DNA from: Escherichia coli
Lineage (GTDB): Bacteria > Pseudomonadota > Gammaproteobacteria > Enterobacterales > Enterobacteriaceae
Length of the DNA stretch: 64,000 nucleotides
Reading direction: 5' to 3' (one strand)
Assembly: GCF_009931435.1 (NCBI RefSeq)
Contig: NZ_CP043414.1
The notes under the pieces were generated by a model that ran no database searches, had not been told where the DNA came from, and saw only the letters and a program-made list of their open reading frames with translations. Every line of letters starts with the position of its first letter. Position 1 is the first letter of the stretch. Positions 9,789-38,110 of the stretch are shown piece by piece. The position numbers and the translations under genes were made by a program.

Positions 9789-9865
<77 letters not shown>

Positions 9866-9898
9866 TCACCGTACTGCTTTACTTCATCAAATTTTGAT

Positions 9899-9975
<77 letters not shown>

Positions 9976-10008
9976 TCACCGTACTGCTTTACTTCATCAA
10001 ATTTTAAT

Positions 10009-10085
<77 letters not shown>

Positions 10086-13973: not shown

Positions 13974-14161
13974 GGTACTCCTCGGCTTGATGCACCGATC
14001 GTGACGCAAAATTCACTTTGATACAAGGAGAGTGCTAACCATCAGAATTATCTGGATATCCTGGCGAAGCCGCGTAAGTAACATATGCTAAATAGTGTTA
14101 GGCGTTAATTTTAGCCTGTTAATCAATACTATTAAGATTTATTAATCGCTTTAAGGAGAAG

Positions 14162-14392
14162 ATGATGAAAAAGACTGCCGCAATTATTTCTGCCTGTATG
14201 CTGACTTTTGCCCTGAGCGCCTGTTCCGGTTCGAACTATGTGATGCACACCAATGACGGACGTACCATCGTCTCTGACGGCAAACCACAGACTGATAACG
14301 ATACCGGTATGATTTCGTATAAAGACGCTAATGGCAACAAACAGCAGATCAACCGTACCGACGTGAAAGAGATGGTCGAACTGGATCAGTAA
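14162..14392 (+). CDS. ygdI: DUF903 family small lipoprotein YgdI
   Basis: Signal peptide + lipobox LSAC; 75-76 aa. Confidence 0.8.
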
Positions 14393-14408
14393 TTCGCGAT
14401 CGCAAGGT

Positions 14409-14614
14409 AAAAAAAAGCACCGCAATTAGGCGGTGCTACATTAATCACTATGGACAGACAGGGTAAATGTACAGGAAGTGAAAAAAGGTAGCTTTGCTAC
14501 CATGGTCTGAATCGCAGACCAATTGCAAACACAACAACACAACATCACAACCGTAAGCCAAAAGTTCACCAGAACACGCATTCCGATAAAACTTTTCGTT
14601 CCGGCTCAGGAAGT
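14409..14614 (-). ncRNA. gcvB: GcvB small regulatory RNA
   Basis: Reverse complement matches GcvB from memory (ACTTCCTGAGCCGGAACGAAAAGTTTTATCGG ... GT-rich region ... GCGGTGCTTTTTTTT terminator); divergent from gcvA. Confidence 0.85.
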
Positions 14615-14742
14615 GCCGCCACTATAGGTATTTGCTGGTAGAAGCTCAACGGACAATTTATAATGGCTCAGATTAAAAAAACTAATAGGTTACACAGAGT
14701 GATCTAATTGTTAAATTCATTTAACATCAAAGTTTAAAAGCC

Positions 14743-15660
14743 ATGTCTAAACGATTACCACCGCTAAATGCCTTACGAGTTTTTGATGCCGCAGCACGCC
14801 ATTTAAGTTTCACTCGCGCAGCAGAAGAGCTTTTTGTGACTCAGGCCGCAGTAAGTCATCAAATCAAGTCTCTTGAGGATTTTCTGGGGCTAAAACTGTT
14901 CCGCCGCCGTAATCGTTCACTCCTGCTGACCGAGGAAGGGCAAAGCTATTTCCTCGATATCAAAGAGATATTTTCGCAATTAACCGAAGCGACACGTAAA
15001 CTCCAGGCCCGTAGCGCCAAGGGGGCGTTGACGGTCAGTTTACTCCCCAGTTTCGCCATTCATTGGTTGGTTCCACGACTTTCCAGCTTTAATTCAGCTT
15101 ATCCGGGAATTGACGTTCGAATCCAGGCGGTTGATCGTCAGGAAGATAAGCTGGCGGATGATGTTGATGTGGCGATATTTTATGGTCGGGGCAACTGGCC
15201 GGGGCTACGGGTGGAAAAACTGTACGCCGAATATTTATTGCCGGTGTGTTCGCCGCTACTGCTGACTGGCGAAAAACCCTTGAAGACCCCGGAAGATCTG
15301 GCTAAACATACGTTATTACATGATGCGTCTCGCCGTGACTGGCAGACATATACTCGCCAATTGGGGTTAAATCATATCAACGTTCAGCAAGGACCAATAT
15401 TTAGTCATAGCGCCATGGTGCTGCAAGCGGCTATCCACGGGCAGGGAGTGGCGCTGGCAAATAACGTGATGGCGCAATCTGAAATCGAGGCCGGACGTCT
15501 TGTTTGCCCGTTTAATGATGTTCTGGTCAGTAAAAATGCTTTTTATCTGGTTTGTCATGACAGTCAGGCAGAACTGGGTAAAATAGCCGCCTTTCGTCAA
15601 TGGATCCTGGCGAAAGCCGCTGCTGAACAAGAAAAATTCCGCTTTCGTTATGAACAATAA
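14743..15660 (+). CDS. gcvA: LysR-family glycine cleavage system regulator GcvA
   Basis: MSKRLPPLNALRVFDAAARHLSFTRAAEELFVTQAAVSHQIK; 305 aa. Confidence 0.9.
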   Translation: MSKRLPPLNALRVFDAAARHLSFTRAAEELFVTQAAVSHQIKSLEDFLGLKLFRRRNRSLLLTEEGQSYFLDIKEIFSQLTEATRKLQARSAKGALTVSLLPSFAIHWLVPRLSSFNSAYPGIDVRIQAVDRQEDKLADDVDVAIFYGRGNWPGLRVEKLYAEYLLPVCSPLLLTGEKPLKTPEDLAKHTLLHDASRRDWQTYTRQLGLNHINVQQGPIFSHSAMVLQAAIHGQGVALANNVMAQSEIEAGRLVCPFNDVLVSKNAFYLVCHDSQAELGKIAAFRQWILAKAAAEQEKFRFRYEQ

Positions 15661-19950: not shown

Positions 19951-21726
19951 TTAACGCTTGTACAACGGACCGTAGTTCTGGCAAGCGCGGTAATCCAGGC
20001 CTTCAATATCCATGCCGTGCGCAGCCCAGGCAGAAGGACGATACACTTTGGTCTCTTCAACGTTGTGCATACATACCGGGATACGCAGCATGGAGGCGAG
20101 AGTGATAAAGTCTGCGCCAACGTGGCCGATGGTCAGAACCCCATGGTTAGCGCCCCAGTTCGCCATTACCGAGTACACATCCGTAAACGGCCCTTTACCG
20201 GTGAGGCGCGGTGCAAACCAGGTGGTTGGCCAGGTTGAGTTGGTGCGTTTGTTGAGGATGTCATGCACATCCTTCGGTAACTCAACGCTCCAGCCTTCCG
20301 CGATTTGCAGTACCGGTCCCAGGCCTTTGATGATGTTGACACGGGTCATGGTGAACGGGACACCGCCTTCAGTAAGGAAGCGGGAAGAGTAACCACCGCC
20401 ACGGAAATATTCGTGGATAGCCGGGCACCATTCGGTCGCGGCGAGGCAAGCGTCAGCCTCTTGCTGAGAGATTTCCCAGTGCGGCTTCATCGTCGGTTTA
20501 CCTTCGCTGTCGCGTTGTTTACAGGATCCGTCCAGCGCAGCAGAACCGGAGTTGATCAAGTGGATGATGCCGTGTTCTGCCAGTCCGTCCAGTTTATGCC
20601 CCGTTACTCGCTCAATTGCTTCTGGTGACCAGTAGGTACGCACATCGGCAAATACCTGAGCGGTACCGGTGAGCTGGTGGCCCATTAGCATTGCCACGCC
20701 GTTAAGACTGTCGTTTTCGGTCGCCACGACGAAGGGTTCACGCACGCCATTCCAGTCAAATGAACTGTTAAGGATCGCTTCGGCGGTGTCGCCATTGGGA
20801 TATTGATCGGTCCAGTGACGTTGTCCCTGGAAGCCCGCAGCGATGGCGTTGTAGCCAAGTGATTCTTCCACGCGACCAATATCGGCCAGTTTGCTGTTGC
20901 CTTGCATCATGTCGCGGATACACATCGCCATCAGTAAACTTTCGCGTAGAACTGCGCGGCTTTGCTCGGCATTGCGTTGATACTGTTTGTTATTTTCATC
21001 TTCGCCATAGCGGAAGTTTTTATCAGCCCAGGCCAGCGCCATTTCCAGTTCTGCTTCGTCGTAAATCTTCTGATCAATACGGCGACGCAGTTCGGTCATA
21101 TCCACCGCCTGGACTTTCATTCCCAGCCAGGATTCAAAGAAGTTGTGGTCAACGATGGAACCGGCGATCCCCATCGAAACGCCGCCCAGCGACAGATAGC
21201 TTTTACCTTTCATACTGGCGACTGCCAAACCGGCGCGGGCAAAGCGCAGCAGTTTTTCTTCAACGTCGGCAGGAATCGATGTGTCATCGGCATCCTGAAC
21301 GTCATGACCGTAAATGGAGAATGCCGGGATGCCTTTCTGGCTGTGAGCTGCCAGAGCCGCTGCCAGGTAAACAGCGCCGGGACGTTCAGTGCCGTTAAAG
21401 CCCCAAATGGCTTTCGGGCGGGTAGGGTCCATGTCAATGGTTTCACTGCCATAGCACCAGCAAGGCGTTACCGTAATGGTGAGGCCTACATTCTGGCTGC
21501 TGAATTTTTCTTCGCAAGCAGCAGCTTCAGCCATACCCGCGATACAGGTATCGGAAATGACACACTCGACGGCAGCTCCGCAGGCATGGCGCAGTTTCTC
21601 GGTCAGCAGTGCGGCCGTAGCTTTCGCCATATTCATTGTTTGTTCTTCAAGCGACTCACGAACACCCATGCGACGACCGTCAATAACCGGGCGGATACCA
21701 ATTTTCGGTAACGTATTAATTTTCAT
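19951..21726 (-). CDS. fucI: L-fucose isomerase FucI
   Basis: 591 aa; [19 protein letters not shown]-type N-terminus. Confidence 0.9.
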
Positions 21727-21808
21727 CAGGATTCCTCATCTCGCTTTATTGGCGCTCTGCTAAGGCGGAGAAAGGAAACCACCGAAGCAGTAGTATTGGT
21801 CATTATTT

Positions 21809-21824
21809 GCTAACTCGAGTTAGC
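21809..21824. promoter_or_regulatory. 16-bp perfect palindrome GCTAACTCGAGTTAGC (copy 1), candidate operator
   Basis: Exact self-complementary 16-mer with central CG, in fucI/ABC-operon divergent intergenic region. Confidence 0.35.
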
Positions 21825-21868
21825 TTAGGTTTGTAGGCTTTTTATGCACAACTTTTTTGTTGTTGAAA

Positions 21869-21884
21869 TGTGAGGGGCTTCACG
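21869..21884. promoter_or_regulatory. CRP-like site TGTGAGGGGCTTCACG
   Basis: 9/10 match to TGTGA-N6-TCACA half-sites. Confidence 0.3.
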
Positions 21885-22047
21885 AGAAGTGGTTAAAATA
21901 CGATCTCTGTCAAATTATTATTTAGCGGGATAAAAATAAATTTTACGTATAATCAAATGGTTATTAGATTTTAATGGTTATGCATCACAGTTTTAACTCA
22001 AATGATTTGGCTAATTTGTATACCTAAAATAGCTTTAAAAGGCGATC

Positions 22048-22063
22048 GCTAACTCGAGTTAGC
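22048..22063. promoter_or_regulatory. 16-bp perfect palindrome GCTAACTCGAGTTAGC (copy 2), candidate operator
   Basis: Identical to copy 1, 239 bp away, ~130 bp upstream of ABC ATPase start. Confidence 0.35.
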
Positions 22064-22195
22064 AAAATGCGAAGAATAGATTGATACGATGAATATTTAT
22101 TCAAAGGTTATTCGTATCACAGTGGAGATGGCTTTAGTAGCGACGTTTATGCCGTACTTCACATTTTCAGTTTCTGATTATTGAGGAAAGCTGCA

Positions 22196-23695
22196 ATGTC
22201 CGAAACATTTTTGCAAATGAAGCATATCACCAAACGCTTTCCTGGAGTGTTGGCGCTTAATGACGTGCAATTTACCCTACGCCGGGGCGAGGTTCATGCA
22301 TTATTAGGTGAAAATGGTGCAGGAAAATCTACATTAATGAAAATTTTGTCGGGGGTTTATCAACCTGATGAAGGCGAAATAATTTTTGAAGATAAATTAG
22401 TCTCATTTTCTGATCCGTTAAGTGCGCAAAACGTAGGTATTACTATTATTCACCAGGAATTTAATTTATTTCCCGAGCTTACAGTAGAAGAAAATATTTT
22501 TATCGGCAGGGAGTTTTGTAAAAAAAATCGCTGGCGTCTGGATGAGAAACAGCAACGCAAGGCGACGATTGAAATTTTGCAAAAATTAAATTTGGCGATC
22601 AAACCAGATACTCTGGTTGCCGACCTTACGGTAGCTCAACAACAGATGGTAGAAATTGCCAAGGCCATTTCGGTTAACGCCAGGATTCTCATTATGGATG
22701 AACCTACTGCGGCGTTAACAGAAACTGAAATTGAAAGCTTATTTCGCGTCACCCGGTTATTGAAAGAACAGGGGACCGGCATTGTGTATATATCCCACCG
22801 TCTGGAAGAGTTGGCGCTAATTGCCGACCGCGCGACTGTAATGCGTGATGGTCAGTACATCAGCACAGTAGATTATGAGTGCGTAAAAATCAGCGATCTG
22901 ATTGCCATGATGGTTGGTCGCGATTTAGGGAATATCTATCCCCGCCGCGAGGCCATACAGCAGCGGATGCCGGTTCTGGAGGTCAACGGACTGACGCGCA
23001 AAGGCGTACTGAACGATATTAATTTTACGCTTTATCGTGGCGAGATCCTCGGCTTTGCCGGACTGATGGGGGCAGGTCGTACTGAACTTGCGCGTGCGAT
23101 TTTTGGTGCGGACTCCATTGACAGCGGAACGCTAAAGTTAAATGGTAAGGAAACCGTTATTAAAGATATTTCGGATGCTATTCAGCAGGGAATTAGTTAC
23201 CTGACGGAAGACCGAAAAAAAGAAGGGTTGGCACTGAATTTATCTGTTGAACGAAATATTATGTTAGGAAATTACCCTGAGTATTCCGATCGTTTTGGGA
23301 ATGTCGATTCGCGTCGTTGCCAACAAACCAGTGAGGAACAGGTAAAAGCGTTAAGGATTAAAACGCCAAATCTTGAACAGGCTGCATTAAATCTAAGTGG
23401 AGGAAATCAGCAGAAAATTATAATTGCACGTTGGGTGTGTAAAGATACTGATATTTTAATCTTCGATGAACCCACTCGCGGCATTGATGTTGGCGCCAAA
23501 CTGGAAATCTATGAGTTAATGAATCGCCTGGTGGCAAAAGGGAAATCAATCATCATGATCTCCTCTGAATTGCCGGAGGTGTTAGGAATGTGCGACCGTA
23601 TTTTAGTGATGCGCAGTGGTCGAATTACTGGCGAACTTAGCGCAAATGAAGCGACACAAGAAAAAATCATGCAATACGCGACGTTAGAGGATTAA
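22196..23695 (+). CDS. Sugar ABC transporter ATP-binding protein, tandem ABC domains (RbsA/MglA-like)
   Basis: Two Walker A (GENGAGKST; GLMGAGRTE) and two signature motifs (LSGGNQQK); ATG 22196 with GAGGA RBS. Confidence 0.85.
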   Translation: MSETFLQMKHITKRFPGVLALNDVQFTLRRGEVHALLGENGAGKSTLMKILSGVYQPDEGEIIFEDKLVSFSDPLSAQNVGITIIHQEFNLFPELTVEENIFIGREFCKKNRWRLDEKQQRKATIEILQKLNLAIKPDTLVADLTVAQQQMVEIAKAISVNARILIMDEPTAALTETEIESLFRVTRLLKEQGTGIVYISHRLEELALIADRATVMRDGQYISTVDYECVKISDLIAMMVGRDLGNIYPRREAIQQRMPVLEVNGLTRKGVLNDINFTLYRGEILGFAGLMGAGRTELARAIFGADSIDSGTLKLNGKETVIKDISDAIQQGISYLTEDRKKEGLALNLSVERNIMLGNYPEYSDRFGNVDSRRCQQTSEEQVKALRIKTPNLEQAALNLSGGNQQKIIIARWVCKDTDILIFDEPTRGIDVGAKLEIYELMNRLVAKGKSIIMISSELPEVLGMCDRILVMRSGRITGELSANEATQEKIMQYATLED

Positions 23696-23698
23696 ATT

Positions 23699-24682
23699 AT
23701 GACTATCTCTGTAACCTCTCCAGACAGCAATAATAAGAAAATAAAGATAAATAAAGAACTTTTGATGCGCCTTGCGCCTCTTTTTAGCTTAATTATATTA
23801 GTGCTGTTTTTTAGTTTCAGCTCTCCCTTTTTCTTTAATACCGAAAATATCATGACGATTGCTCTGCAAACGTCGGTTATCGGCATTATGGCCATTGGGG
23901 TAACTTTCGTCATTATTACCGCGGGCATCGATCTTTCATTGGGTTCCGTGGTGGCTTTTTCTGGTGTCGCCGTGGGGATTTGCGCCACACTGGGCCTGCC
24001 GCTGCCAGTGTGTATTATTGCCGGTGTTTTAGCCGGTGGAATGTGCGGCTATGTGAATGGTTTGTTGGTCACTAAAATGACTATTCCACCGTTTATCGCT
24101 ACCTTGGGCCTGATGATGTCCGTCAGAGGTATCAATATGGTGATGACCGACGGGCGCGCCATCTATTTTGCCGATTACCCGATGTTCAAAACGCTCGCTC
24201 AGGGACGCTTGTTTGATGTGCTGCCTTATCCTGTTTTCTACCTGGTCATTGTGGCGCTTGTCGGCGCTTACATCCTGAAGAAAACGGTTATTGGTCGCTA
24301 TGTCTATGCCGTAGGCAGTAATGAAGTTGCTGCTCATCTTTCTGGTATTAAAGTTCAGCGCGTGAAAATTTTCGTCTATGCCTTCTGTGGTTTATTAACC
24401 GGGATTGCGGGTGTCATTCTCGCTTCTCGTCTCAACTCCGGACAACCGACGGTGGGTGTGGGTTATGAGCTGGAAGCTATTGCTGCGGTAGTGATCGGCG
24501 GAACCAGCTTAATGGGCGGTATTGGCACTATTGGCGGCACAATCATTGGCGCTTTCATTATGAGTGTACTGAAAAATGGCCTCAATTTAATGGGGGTCTC
24601 TCAGTTCTGGCAAATGGTCGCGATGGGCGTAGTTGTGGTCGCTGCCGTTTACCTCGATACATTACGCAAAAAGATTCGTTGA
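23699..24682 (+). CDS. Sugar ABC transporter permease (RbsC/AraH family)
   Basis: ~10 TM segments, family layout. Confidence 0.85.
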   Translation: MTISVTSPDSNNKKIKINKELLMRLAPLFSLIILVLFFSFSSPFFFNTENIMTIALQTSVIGIMAIGVTFVIITAGIDLSLGSVVAFSGVAVGICATLGLPLPVCIIAGVLAGGMCGYVNGLLVTKMTIPPFIATLGLMMSVRGINMVMTDGRAIYFADYPMFKTLAQGRLFDVLPYPVFYLVIVALVGAYILKKTVIGRYVYAVGSNEVAAHLSGIKVQRVKIFVYAFCGLLTGIAGVILASRLNSGQPTVGVGYELEAIAAVVIGGTSLMGGIGTIGGTIIGAFIMSVLKNGLNLMGVSQFWQMVAMGVVVVAAVYLDTLRKKIR

Positions 24683-24755
24683 CTTAGGCTCCCTGTTTTA
24701 TCGGGAAACAACTGCCCTGACGTTAAGGGTGATTCACTCAGAACGGAGTACAACA

Positions 24756-25706
24756 ATGAAAACCAGGCATTTTATCTATGCGTTATCTCTGCTGGCTTGC
24801 GTAAGTTCCAGCGCACTGGCGAAGGATTTAAATCTTCCGGTTGTTAGTAAAGGTTTCCAACATGAATTCTGGCAAACCGTAAAAATGGGGACTGAAGCTG
24901 CGGCTAAAGAGTTGGGGGATAAAACCAGCTATGTTGGCCCGGCTGATGAAACGCAAATAGCCGAGCAAATTCAGTTAGTCGAAAATGCGATGGCGCAGAA
25001 ACCGAATGGCTTGCTTCTGGCAGCCCTCGACGCGAATGCGCTCGCCCCACTGGTAGAAACGGCAAATTCACGCGGTATCAAAGTGGTGACCTTTGATTCA
25101 GGCATCAATTCAGACATTCCGGTGAGTTTTGTCGCCACCAATAACCGTAAAGCAGGTGCTCAGGCAGCTGATGCCTTAGCTGCGCAGGTAAATAATAAAG
25201 GGAAAGTTGGGATTATCGCGCACGTTGCAGGAACATCTTCCGCTATTGAACGCTCGGAAGGCTTCATGGAGCGTATGAAAGAAAAATATCCTGACATTAA
25301 AGTCTTACCCGTTCAGTACAGCGATGGTGACCCGCAAAAAGCGATGGATAAAACTATCGATATGATTCAGGCCAATCCCGATCTTGCTGGGATCTATGGC
25401 ACCAATGAAGGTTCAACGCTCGGGGTGGCGAATGCCATTGATAGCCAGAATCTGAAAGGTAAGGTGAAGGTCATTGGTTTTGATAGTACGGAAGCGATTA
25501 TTAACTTCCTGAAGAACGGGGTCATTCAGGGCTTTGTTGTTCAGGATGCATACCAGATTGGCTATCAAGGGATCAAAACGTTGAACGCGGCCCTTTCGGG
25601 GCAAGCCGTTGAAAAAGAGATCGATATTCCCGTGAAATTTGTTAATGCCGAGAATATTAACACGCCAGAAATCGACAAACTCCTGCACCCATTCGGTAAG
25701 AAATAA
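24756..25706 (+). CDS. Periplasmic sugar-binding protein (RbsB-like, type I PBP) with signal peptide
   Basis: MKTRHFIYALSLLACVSSSALA signal peptide; GGAG RBS; ORF-track upstream extension overlaps permease and is rejected. Confidence 0.85.
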   Translation: MKTRHFIYALSLLACVSSSALAKDLNLPVVSKGFQHEFWQTVKMGTEAAAKELGDKTSYVGPADETQIAEQIQLVENAMAQKPNGLLLAALDANALAPLVETANSRGIKVVTFDSGINSDIPVSFVATNNRKAGAQAADALAAQVNNKGKVGIIAHVAGTSSAIERSEGFMERMKEKYPDIKVLPVQYSDGDPQKAMDKTIDMIQANPDLAGIYGTNEGSTLGVANAIDSQNLKGKVKVIGFDSTEAIINFLKNGVIQGFVVQDAYQIGYQGIKTLNAALSGQAVEKEIDIPVKFVNAENINTPEIDKLLHPFGKK

Positions 25707-25759
25707 AAAAATTGGGGATGAATTCTCATCCCCGTTATCTCCAGCGTCAGGGAGGCTTT

Positions 25760-27340
25760 ATGCACAACGGTTATTTTCTCGGTGTCGATGTCGGATCGGC
25801 CAGTGTCAGGGCAGGCGTTTACAGTGCCAGTGGCCACAGGCTGGCATTCGCTACTGCGCCCGTCTCCCAGTTTCGCCCTGGCGGCGAGCGTGTCGAACAG
25901 TCTTCGGCAGAGATCTGGCAACAAGTTTGTAAAACGGTGAAAGAGGCGACAGCTTTGGCAGGCATCCCCATTTCCGCAATTCGCTCACTGGGTTTTGACG
26001 CTACCTGCTCGCTGGTTGTTCTTGATGAACAAGGCCAGGGTTTAGCGGTTTCGTCCGGTGGATCTGCGAATCACGACATTATTATGTGGATGGATCATCG
26101 TGCAACTGTCGAGACGGCGCAGATTAACGCAACGAAGGATCCCGTATTGCGCTACGTTGGCGGCGAAGTGAGCGTCGAGATGGAGTTACCAAAGTTACGT
26201 TGGTTGAAGACGCATCTACCGCAAACCTGGCAGGCCGCTCATCGCTTTTTCGATCTGGCGGATTTTCTGGTCTGGAAAGCAACAGGGCGAGACGTCGCGG
26301 GATTGTGCACGCTAACGTGTAAATGGAATTATCTGGCTCATGAACAACGCTTTAGCCATAGCTTACTGGAATCGGTAGACCTGACCGACATGCTCGAAAG
26401 AATTCCCGCCGAAATTCTTCCGCCTGGTGCTGCCGTGGGAACTTTAACTGCCACAGCTGCTGAAGAATTAGGATTAACGACCAATGTTATCGTGGCCAGT
26501 GGTTTGATTGATGCCCATGCCGGTGGCATGGCGCTGGCTGGCGCGCAGCCATCAGGAACGCTGGCATTGATAAGCGGAACGTCGAATTGCCACATGTTGT
26601 GCAGTGAAAAAGAAATATTCACCCCTGGCGTCTGGGGGCCATACTGGTCGGCCATGTTGCCAAATTACTGGCTAACTGAAGGCGGGCAAAGCGCCGCAGG
26701 GGCGCTGGTGGAGTGGACGCTTCAGGAGTCCGGGGCAAGCGCAAATCTTTTTAACAAGGCGCAGCAACGCGGGTGTCATCCGATTCAACTGATTAATGAA
26801 TGGGTAGCCGCCCTGGAAGCTAACGAGTCAGAACCCACACGAAATTTACATGTGCTTGCCGATCATCACGGCAACCGTTCGCCACGAGCGCGGCCCGATG
26901 CCAGAGGCAGTGTTTATGGCTTAACACTGGAGCGTGGTGAAAATCAGCTCGCGCGGCTTTATCTTGCGACTTTACAGGCAATAGCCTTTGGCACCAGACA
27001 TATTATTGAAACTCTGCGGGAAAATGGGCATACCATTACCCGATTAACATTATGTGGTGGTGCAACGCACAACCCTTTATGGCTACGCGAATATGCAGAC
27101 GTGACAGGTTGCGATATCCACCTGATGCAAGAAGAAGATGCCGTTACGTTGGGCGCAGCAATTAGCGGCGCTGTTGCCAGCGGAGCATGGGGGGATTTTA
27201 CATCTGCGTGTAAAGCAATGGTTGAAGCCGGAGAGGTTATTCAGGTAAATCCACAACGCCGTGAATTTTTAGAGCGTAAATACCGGGTTTACCTGACGCT
27301 TTGGGAGCAACAACAGGCGGTTAACCAACTGATGCAATAA
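25760..27340 (+). CDS. FGGY-family carbohydrate (pentulose-type) kinase
   Basis: GVDVGSASVRAGV N-terminal FGGY motif; ~526 aa; GGAGG RBS. Confidence 0.8.
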   Translation: MHNGYFLGVDVGSASVRAGVYSASGHRLAFATAPVSQFRPGGERVEQSSAEIWQQVCKTVKEATALAGIPISAIRSLGFDATCSLVVLDEQGQGLAVSSGGSANHDIIMWMDHRATVETAQINATKDPVLRYVGGEVSVEMELPKLRWLKTHLPQTWQAAHRFFDLADFLVWKATGRDVAGLCTLTCKWNYLAHEQRFSHSLLESVDLTDMLERIPAEILPPGAAVGTLTATAAEELGLTTNVIVASGLIDAHAGGMALAGAQPSGTLALISGTSNCHMLCSEKEIFTPGVWGPYWSAMLPNYWLTEGGQSAAGALVEWTLQESGASANLFNKAQQRGCHPIQLINEWVAALEANESEPTRNLHVLADHHGNRSPRARPDARGSVYGLTLERGENQLARLYLATLQAIAFGTRHIIETLRENGHTITRLTLCGGATHNPLWLREYADVTGCDIHLMQEEDAVTLGAAISGAVASGAWGDFTSACKAMVEAGEVIQVNPQRREFLERKYRVYLTLWEQQQAVNQLMQ

Positions 27341-27404
27341 GACAAAAGTTGAAAATACTTTTATGATTGTGATTTGACGTCTGGATGTTAACTGGGAAAT
27401 ACCT

Positions 27405-28403
27405 ATGGCTAAAACAGTAGAGCAGATAGCCAGCGACCTGAATTTATCGGTTACGACCGTGCGACTGGTGCTAAATGGAAAAGCGGAACAATATCGAATC
27501 AGCGTCAAAACCCAAACGCGTATCAATGAATATGTTGAACGCTATGGTTATATCATTAATCATTCCGCTCGCAGCCTTAAGCTTAACAAAACTGATACAT
27601 TAGGGTTGATTGTTCCCAACATATCCAACGTCTTTTTTGCTACGCTGGCAGAAAAACTCGAACAACGCTGTCGACGTTCCGGATATCAACTTACAATCAG
27701 TTGCACTTATGATGATGTTGACTATGAAAATAAATTGACGAAAGCATTTATCGCACGAAATGTAGATGGTCTTTTTATTGTTCCTTCGACGCTGGAAAAT
27801 CAGCAGCATCATTTACGCAAAATTCGTAAGCCAATGGTTTTACTCGATCGTGATTTTAAATATACCGATAACGCATTGGTAGAGAGTAATAATATTTCTG
27901 GCGGAGAAAAGCTGACGCAAAATATTCTTGAGGCCGGGCAGGCTCCAGTATGGTTTTTGCTGGGAGATGCCGGTTTGCCGAGTATCAGCGATCGTCTGAC
28001 AGGTTATTTGAATGCGTTGGCAAAAAAAGGGATTACCCATCGCGATTGGGTGCGGGAAGGTCCGGTAAATACTCCGGAAGGCGGCTATGTCATTATGGAA
28101 AAACTCATTGAAGAGCAGGGATGTCCGCAGGCATTTATCGCCTCGTCTTTACCTGTGCTTGAAGGCGCTGTCCGCGCGATTCGCGACCGTCTTGGCGCTG
28201 TACCGCCAGAAATCAATATTGGCACTTTCGATGAACATCCTATGCTGGGATTTCTCGCCAACAATGTCTGGTCAATGCAGCAGGATGAAAATGCCTGGGC
28301 AGAAAAAGCGTTCGAAATGATGTTAAGCGCGATCGAAGAAAGACCAGTAAAAAAAACAGTTAAAGTAGAAATGAAATTAATTAAGCGCATAAGAAAAAAA
28401 TAA
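27405..28403 (+). CDS. LacI-family transcriptional regulator
   Basis: N-terminal HTH (TVEQIASDLNLSVTTVRLVLNG) plus periplasmic-binding-like effector domain. Confidence 0.85.
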   Translation: MAKTVEQIASDLNLSVTTVRLVLNGKAEQYRISVKTQTRINEYVERYGYIINHSARSLKLNKTDTLGLIVPNISNVFFATLAEKLEQRCRRSGYQLTISCTYDDVDYENKLTKAFIARNVDGLFIVPSTLENQQHHLRKIRKPMVLLDRDFKYTDNALVESNNISGGEKLTQNILEAGQAPVWFLLGDAGLPSISDRLTGYLNALAKKGITHRDWVREGPVNTPEGGYVIMEKLIEEQGCPQAFIASSLPVLEGAVRAIRDRLGAVPPEINIGTFDEHPMLGFLANNVWSMQQDENAWAEKAFEMMLSAIEERPVKKTVKVEMKLIKRIRKK

Positions 28404-28535
28404 TAATCGCCAAAAGATATCAGGCTACTGAACAATGATATTCAGTGGCCTCCCCTTACTAAAAATAACCCCGTCTTCATTTGCGGTGCTGTTTTACGCA
28501 ACAAGGCGAGCTGAAACTGTATCTGGAGAATAGAA

Positions 28536-29183
28536 ATGGAAAGAACACGTTTATCCCGTGAAATAATTGAAACCTGTCTGGAAATGACGCGCCTTGGGTT
28601 AAATCAGGGGACAGCGGGGAATGTCAGCACACGTTTTGAAAACGGCATGTTGATTACTCCCAGCGGTATTCCTTATGAAAGAATGACGGAGAATATGATT
28701 GTCTATGTTGATGGCAACGGCAAATACGAAGAAGGTAAGATTCCTTCCAGCGAATGGCGTTTCCATATGGCGGCCTATCAAAGCAGACCGGATGCCAACG
28801 CGGTTGTTCACAATCATGCCGTTCATTGCACGGCAGTTTCCATTCTTAACCGACCGATCCCTGCTATTCACTACATGATTGCGGCGGCTGGCGGTAATTC
28901 TATTCCTTGCGCGCCTTATGCGACCTTTGGAACTCGGGAACTTTCTGAACATGTTGCGCTGGCTCTCAAAAATCGTAAGGCAACTTTGTTACAACATCAT
29001 GGGCTTATCGCTTGTGAGGTGAATCTGGAGAAAGCGTTATGGCTGGCGCATGAAGTTGAAGTGCTGGCGCAACTTTACCTGACGACCCTGGCGATTACGG
29101 ACCCGGTGCCAGTGCTGAGCGATGAAGAGATTGCCGTAGTGCTGGAGAAATTCAAAACCTACGGGTTACGGATTGAAGAGTAA
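28536..29183 (+). CDS. fucA: L-fuculose-1-phosphate aldolase
   Basis: Near-complete match to FucA from memory (..GTAGNVS..HNHAVHCTAVSILNR..); 215 aa. Confidence 0.9.
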   Translation: MERTRLSREIIETCLEMTRLGLNQGTAGNVSTRFENGMLITPSGIPYERMTENMIVYVDGNGKYEEGKIPSSEWRFHMAAYQSRPDANAVVHNHAVHCTAVSILNRPIPAIHYMIAAAGGNSIPCAPYATFGTRELSEHVALALKNRKATLLQHHGLIACEVNLEKALWLAHEVEVLAQLYLTTLAITDPVPVLSDEEIAVVLEKFKTYGLRIEE

Positions 29184-37708: not shown

Positions 37709-38067
37709 GAGTCAGACAACGAAGTGAACATCAGGATGATGACACTTCTGAAGGACACACCAGGAGGGTGTTTCAGGGAAAGGCTTCTGGATGAAGCGAA
37801 GAGGATGACGCAGGACGCGTTAAAGGACACCTCCAGGATGGAGAATGAGAACCGGTCAGGATGATTCGGTGGGTCAGGAAGGCCAAGGACACTTCAGGAT
37901 GAAGTATCATATCGGGGTGGTGTGAGCAGGAAGCAATAGTTCAGGATGAACGATTGGCCGCAAGGCCAGAGGAAAAGTTGTCAAGGATGAGCAGGGAGCA
38001 ACAAAAGTAGCTGGAATGCTGCGAAACGAACCGGGAGCACTGTGAATACAGTGCTCCCTTTTTTTAT
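37709..38067 (+). ncRNA. csrB: CsrB, CsrA-sequestering sRNA (~360 nt, many CAGGA(U/A)G repeats, terminal hairpin + U-run)
   Basis: Starts GAGTCAGACAACGAAGTGAACATCAGGATGATG; dense repeated AGGA/GGA motifs throughout; terminator GGGAGCACTGTGAATACAGTGCTCCC + T8. Confidence 0.9.
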
Positions 38068-38110
38068 TCCTGCTATCCTTCGCGGCAGTTTTTCTTATTG
38101 AGGTTGCTTT

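Follow-up and report, generated by a model that had tools for sequence, protein, structure and literature searches.

What is encoded by the DNA between ygdI and gcvA in this E. coli genome? The region lies within the 64,000-nt stretch that we analysed as a whole and refer to as the window. An initial annotation had placed the small RNA (sRNA) gene gcvB at positions 14409-14614, 206 nt on the minus strand, and the coordinates that we obtained with Rfam agree with this placement to the base. We conclude, with a probability of roughly 98%, that the region is E. coli gcvB, encoding GcvB, a 206-nt Hfq-dependent trans-acting sRNA. The identity of the gene, its boundaries, its structure with covariation, its promoter-like and terminator signals, and its synteny are established here, and the match of these observations to GcvB is far above chance. 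We found no evidence in this analysis that runs contrary to the gcvB identification. The gene is the canonical E. coli gcvB, which is already known, and the finding contains no new biology. Its importance is for annotation only: protein-centred automatic annotation omits gcvB, and recognising the gene keeps the spurious small open reading frames (ORFs) that overlap it from being taken for genes.

The initial annotation had named an Rfam scan for GcvB and an alignment to the K-12 gene as checks, and both bear it out. A scan of the entire window with Rfam 15, using gathering thresholds, gave five hits in total. Positions 14614..14409 on the minus strand matched GcvB (RF00022) along the entire model (1-204 of 204) with 199 bits and an E value of 1.1e-46, 157 bits above the 42-bit gathering score of this family. 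When the region was aligned to gcvB of K-12 MG1655 (b4443; NC_000913 2942696-2942901), 206 of 206 bases were identical. Moreover, a gcvB match is present in 5425 of 5426 complete E. coli genomes, covering at least 80% of the length in 5422 of them and reaching at least 99% identity in 5389. A single genome of the 5426 lacks any match. In NZ_AP042483.1 (E. coli OkiPb01677), gcvB matches two separate places, the best of which covers only nt 1-125, and the gene may be interrupted in this genome, for example by an insertion.

The perfect identity to K-12 can be set against the surrounding sequence. Across 6.9 kb of flank there are 177 mismatches to K-12, a divergence of 2.6% (97.4% identity). At this rate ~5.3 substitutions would be expected in gcvB and there are none (P ~0.005). 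This is a sign of constraint, but a rough one, because the flank consists largely of coding sequence, in which synonymous sites are free to change.

The window copy carries all of the structural elements of GcvB (Table 1). The GU-rich linker R1 has the sequence GGUUGUGAUGUUGUGUUGUUGUGUUUGCAAUU and is mostly unpaired in the centroid fold. Within it lies the GT-rich 27-mer that had been pointed out on the plus strand at 14526-14552 (CAAACACAACAACACAACATCACAACC), which, read on the minus strand, is GcvB nt 63-89. The R2 motif CACUUCCUGUACAUUU and R3, which is contained in SL4, are both present, and both are conserved in Enterobacterales; the SL4/R3 element CCCUGUCUGUCCAUAGUGA is kept throughout this order. 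Miyakoshi et al. (PMC9299463) mutated R3 at G156, G160, and C162, and the window copy has the same bases at these positions, so our numbering is consistent with that of the literature. The RNA has two intrinsic terminators, and a terminator scan flagged both of them (SL3 with T6 and SL5 with T8) independently of the Rfam structure. The internal terminator, t1, has a 6-bp stem at 14501..14487 followed by TTTTTT. The second, t2, is the intrinsic terminator that the initial annotation had described, an 8-bp stem with six G-C pairs at 14437..14416 followed by T8, with the U tail ending at 14409. By analogy with published work, the U tail of SL5 would form an Hfq-type 3' end at which Hfq probably binds. 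The predicted fold of GcvB has a free energy of -62.1 kcal/mol, compared with a mean of -47.1 kcal/mol for shuffled sequences (z = -3.6), and none of 200 shuffles was as stable.

Table 1. Features of the gcvB locus in window coordinates; GcvB nucleotide n lies at window position 14615-n.
Feature	Window position	Strand	GcvB nt	Basis or remark
gcvB gene, 206-nt GcvB sRNA	14409..14614	-		Full-length Rfam RF00022 match and identity to K-12 b4443
gcvB transcript ends	start 14614, 3' end 14409	-		
gcvB sigma-70-type promoter (putative)	14621..14649	-		-35 TTGAGC at 14649-14644, 17-nt spacer, -10 TATAGT at 14626-14621
SL1, long 5' stem-loop	14556..14606	-	9-59	Rfam consensus structure; one of two expected SroC pairing sites
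R1, GU-rich linker, main target seed	14522..14555	-	60-93	Unpaired in Rfam consensus
SL2	14503..14521	-	94-112	Rfam structure
SL3 and U6, internal Rho-independent terminator t1	14481..14501	-	SL3 114-128, U6 129-134	Terminator scan
R2 conserved region, UCACUUCCUGUACAUUU	14465..14481	-	134-150	Located by sequence
SL4, with R3 seed (~nt 152-166, window 14449-14463)	14438..14470	-	145-177	Rfam structure
SL5, terminator t2, stem AGCACCGC / GCGGUGCU at 14437-14416	14409..14437	-	SL5 178-199	Terminator scan, Rfam structure
gcvA-gcvB divergent control region, 128 bp	14615..14742			Both promoters; predicted GcvA binding region
gcvA, LysR-type regulator, expected activator of gcvB	14743..15660	+		305-aa ORF; K-12 b2808 position; divergent
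46-aa ORF	14441..14581	-	34-174	ORF list
37-aa ORF	14448..14561	-		ORF list
34-aa ORF	14523..14627	+		ORF list
97-aa ORF, antisense to ygdI, tail overlaps gcvB	14132..14425	-		ORF list

Is this structure maintained in other bacteria? We scanned one genome per species for the pattern TTGTGTTTGCA-N30-60-CACTTCCTGT, and at least 120 stretches matched. Of 40 loci passed to Rfam, 37 were full-length GcvB with scores of 85-198 bits, and all 37 came from Enterobacterales or Pasteurellaceae. The other three were chance pattern matches in out-groups (Borreliella, Paenibacillus, and a Flavobacteriales MAG), in which Rfam found no GcvB. The 37 homologues and the window copy were aligned with MAFFT (38 sequences), and the alignment was not fitted to the structure. 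When the Rfam structure was laid on this alignment, 82.7% of cells were paired, compared with 35-49% when partners were slid by 1-3 columns, a comparison in which the unslid register is favoured by the projection of the structure from the window row. In addition, 27 of 47 pairs had changed on both sides, against a mean of 15.8 in shuffled alignments, and none of 500 shuffles reached 27.

The compensatory changes are distributed over several stems. In the upper helix of SL1, 12 of 14 pairs have changes on both sides among the 38 sequences. Six of the eight pairs of SL2 are compensatory, with C-G replaced by U-A, U-A by C-G, and G-C by A-U, for example, in five sequences each. SL3 has a G-C to A-U change in nine sequences, and 88% of SL5 cells are paired across the 38 sequences. 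Thus, the stem-loops of GcvB are backed by compensatory base changes across genera. Sequence conservation has to be read more carefully, as 21 bases belonging to the search pattern are invariant in the alignment by construction. The invariance of the R1 core UUGUGUUUGCA is due to the pattern used to fetch the homologues; the GU-rich columns flanking this core are also conserved. Likewise, the R2 columns are invariant or nearly so in the 38 sequences, with ten R2 bases being fixed by the search pattern.

The DNA upstream of gcvB contains a putative sigma-70-type promoter, called from its resemblance to the consensus and suitably spaced from the annotated 5' end. It agrees with the consensus at 9 of 12 positions, its -10 element ends 7 nt upstream of +1, and the stretch is the same as in K-12. 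Three SNPs relative to K-12 are found in the intergenic region 14615-14742, on the side nearer gcvA, and none of them falls in the gcvB promoter hexamers. Two of these SNPs lie between copies of the motif CTAAT, and the third precedes the gcvA start codon by 3 nt. CTAAT, the putative core of a GcvA site, occurs in the gcvA-gcvB intergenic region at 14682-14686 and 14704-14708. The window contains 64 copies of this 5-mer, below the 109 expected by chance, and we treat the two intergenic copies as a lead only, too weak to be evidence of GcvA binding. In published work, the GcvA binding region has been located within -90 to +1 of gcvB (PMC1557403).

The gene neighbourhood is that of gcvB. The order of genes is the same as in K-12, namely tcdA, csdE, csdA, ygdI, gcvB, gcvA (facing away), ygdD, and rlmM. 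The position upstream of gcvA that the initial annotation had given is correct, with the start of gcvA at 14743 (+) and the 5' end of gcvB at 14614 (-), 129 nt apart. The arrangement extends to other genera: a divergent gcvA adjoins gcvB at a distance of 51-249 nt in 31 of 31 other-genus loci with enough upstream DNA to be informative (more than ~150 nt), and in the six loci in which gcvA was not seen, the sequence stops no more than 151 nt beyond the 5' end of gcvB.

Might the region encode a protein, instead of or besides its role as an RNA? The ORF list contains four ORFs that overlap gcvB, and the initial annotation had called such small ORFs spurious. The one that merits attention is the 46-aa ORF in the sense orientation, which would make GcvB a dual-function sRNA; if its 46 codons were translated under some condition in the Escherichia-type clade, GcvB would resemble SgrS/SgrT. 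This ORF is present in the window and is intact at 43-46 codons in Escherichia-, Citrobacter-, Kluyvera-, and Enterobacter-type relatives, but it survives in these close relatives because the RNA sequence is nearly identical there. In Yersinia, Serratia, Morganella, Hafnia, Photorhabdus, Xenorhabdus, Providencia, Plesiomonas, and Pasteurellaceae, GcvB itself is retained whereas the ORF has lost its start or its frame. Moreover, the AUG occupies nt 34-36, and the Rfam structure places its first two bases in pairs at the tip of SL1 (nt 34 with nt 41, nt 35 with nt 40); no Shine-Dalgarno sequence is found at the proper distance upstream. E. coli GcvB is also reported not to be translated in vivo (PMC1557403, citing Urbanowski et al.). 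We therefore consider translation of the 46-aa ORF very improbable. We followed the two sense ORFs (46 and 37 aa) and the antisense ORFs through the 38 homologues; all are retained only in RNAs of almost unchanged sequence, and on this basis we rejected a small protein within GcvB. The ORFs overlapping gcvB are spurious.

Even less credible is a reading of 14409-14614 as mere upstream DNA of gcvA or as the 3' region of ygdI, with an incidental GcvB match; the stretch can indeed be read as intergenic DNA between the stop codon of the convergent ygdI (14390-14392) and the start of gcvA, and PGAP-annotated records have no feature there, but this reading is effectively refuted by a full-length covariance match so far (157 bits) over threshold, by a promoter-like site and two terminators belonging to the minus strand itself, by compensatory stem changes across genera, and by the curated K-12 record, which lists an ncRNA gcvB.

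We found no annotated feature under the gcvB match in the 15 RefSeq records listed, and no feature between gcvA and ygdI in a PGAP-annotated O157:H7 record. Of the two feature tables that we compared, only that of the curated K-12 record has an ncRNA gcvB feature ("small regulatory RNA GcvB"). The initial annotation had remarked that gcvB is easy to miss, being absent from the ORF track, and this remark is correct because the PGAP RefSeq records that we checked carry nothing at the gcvB position.

How would GcvB act in this strain? Since the RNA is base-for-base identical to the characterised K-12 RNA, the published mechanism can be transferred to it, and control by GcvA and GcvR, dependence on Hfq, the targets, and the effect of SroC would be expected to be as in K-12. 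Regulation by GcvA and GcvR is known for K-12 gcvB (PMC1557403), and transcription of the gene is under both proteins and is induced at high intracellular glycine (PMC9299463). In the present strain, transcription would start at 14614 from the sigma-70 promoter, within the 128-bp region held in common with the divergent gcvA. According to the literature, abundant glycine would lead GcvA to activate the promoter, and GcvR would act as its repressor.

The two terminators of the window copy have counterparts in published work. The gcvB genes of E. coli and Yersinia have two Rho-independent terminators, t1 and t2, that give rise to RNAs of ~130 and 206 nt (PMC1557403). In E. coli, ~90% of gcvB transcripts are reported to stop at t1, and the 206-nt form is required for the repression of oppA and dppA (PMC1557403). 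Transcription of the window copy would likewise be expected to stop either at t1 (SL3 and its U run, ~130 nt) or at t2 (SL5 and its U run, 206 nt). Later work, as against the figure of ~90% stopping at t1, treats the ~200-nt form of GcvB as the abundant species.

The expected targets of full-length GcvB are C/A-rich sites close to the ribosome-binding sites of over 50 mRNAs, most of them for biosynthetic enzymes or for transporters of amino acids and peptides; dppA, oppA, gltI, argT, cycA, gdhA, lrp, and phoP are examples. The GcvB target genes lie outside the window. Pairing would occur through the single-stranded R1 or through R3 in SL4, and in the case of cycA also through R2, and it would be expected to block translation and promote decay of the mRNA. 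In published work, the R1 seed serves most targets and R3 in SL4 a further set that includes phoP and lrp, and R2 serves cycA only (PMC9299463). The regulon comprises more than 50 genes, the majority of which encode metabolic enzymes or transporters of amino acids and peptides, and Hfq-dependent repression of transporter mRNAs (dppA, oppA, and others) has been demonstrated experimentally in K-12 (PMC9299463). Finally, the sponge RNA SroC would be expected to counteract GcvB by pairing with SL1 and SL4, leading to cleavage by RNase E. SroC derives from the 3' UTR of gltI, and its pairing with these two stem-loops of GcvB triggers RNase E decay (PMC9299463).

The window also contains features outside the gcvB locus. 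A full-length CsrB sRNA is found at 37709-38068 (+) (RF00018; score 379.8 bits, gathering score 71). The csrB gene is likewise well known and, being non-coding, escapes an ORF track; in K-12 it occupies the same relative position, between syd and yqcC. Three tandem tRNA-Met genes (anticodon CAT) with 110 bp spacing are located at 9789-10085 (-). Their position matches that of the E. coli tRNA cluster beside mltA, and they are presumably the metZWV initiator tRNA cluster.

Two segments of the window have no K-12 counterpart. The first is a ~6.8-kb block at 21739-28565 that takes the place of fucP between fucI and fucA. Its genes encode a sugar ABC transporter (ATPase, permease, and binding protein), an FGGY-family carbohydrate kinase, and a LacI-family regulator, and the block may give the fucose locus an alternative module for sugar uptake. 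No more than 381 of the 5426 complete E. coli genomes contain 80% or more of a query spanning it (21600-28700), and the best match, in the goat isolate R32_14_1F, has 99.1% identity. The second segment, ~3.5 kb at 55709-59178 in the ygcG region, is annotated in matching genomes with a LemA-family protein and three TPM-domain proteins, and is found at 80% coverage or more in 1102 of the 5426 genomes. The best matches to the two segments are 99.1-99.9% identical, and goat isolate R32_14_1F is among them for both. In addition, 59179-64000 (queE/ygcE region) has 91-94% identity to K-12 with many gaps, compared with ~97% elsewhere in the window. Given the best matches of the non-K-12 segments and the ~97% identity to K-12, the window comes from an E. 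coli lineage at some distance from K-12.

How does this copy of GcvB compare with those already described? The GcvB of K-12 MG1655 (b4443, RF00022) has the same 206 nt, the same promoter hexamers, both terminators, the same neighbours, and the same orientation of gcvA. At the level of the locus, the gene itself is without differences, whereas the intergenic region has three SNPs and the surrounding genes are ~97.4% identical.

The GcvB RNAs of Yersinia, Serratia, and other Enterobacterales (for example, Y. pestis; PMC1557403) share with the window copy the same five stems, R2, R3, the two terminators, and a divergent gcvA. However, the R1 region of the Escherichia type is longer than that of the Yersinia/Serratia type, containing an extra ACGGUUGUGAU-like stretch that is an 8-nt insertion relative to the Rfam model. 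In our alignment, the longer R1 occupies columns 89-108 (nt ~60-78) and distinguishes an Escherichia/Citrobacter/Enterobacter-type clade from Yersinia, Serratia, Proteus, and their relatives. The extra stretch has the look of a GU-rich seed that was duplicated locally. The sequence of SL1 also differs between the two types, with compensatory changes.

The GcvB RNAs of Pasteurellaceae (for example, Pasteurella multocida; PMC5900567) have much lower Rfam scores, 85-127 bits. They keep the cores of both R1 (UGAUGUUGUGUUUGCA) and R2 (UUUCACUUCCUGUA), as well as SL2 and SL3 with compensatory changes, whereas their 5' stem-loop and SL4/R3 are not alignable to the window copy. A GcvA-like gene is divergent alongside gcvB in these bacteria as well, although the Pasteurellaceae GcvA proteins are only 46-65% identical.
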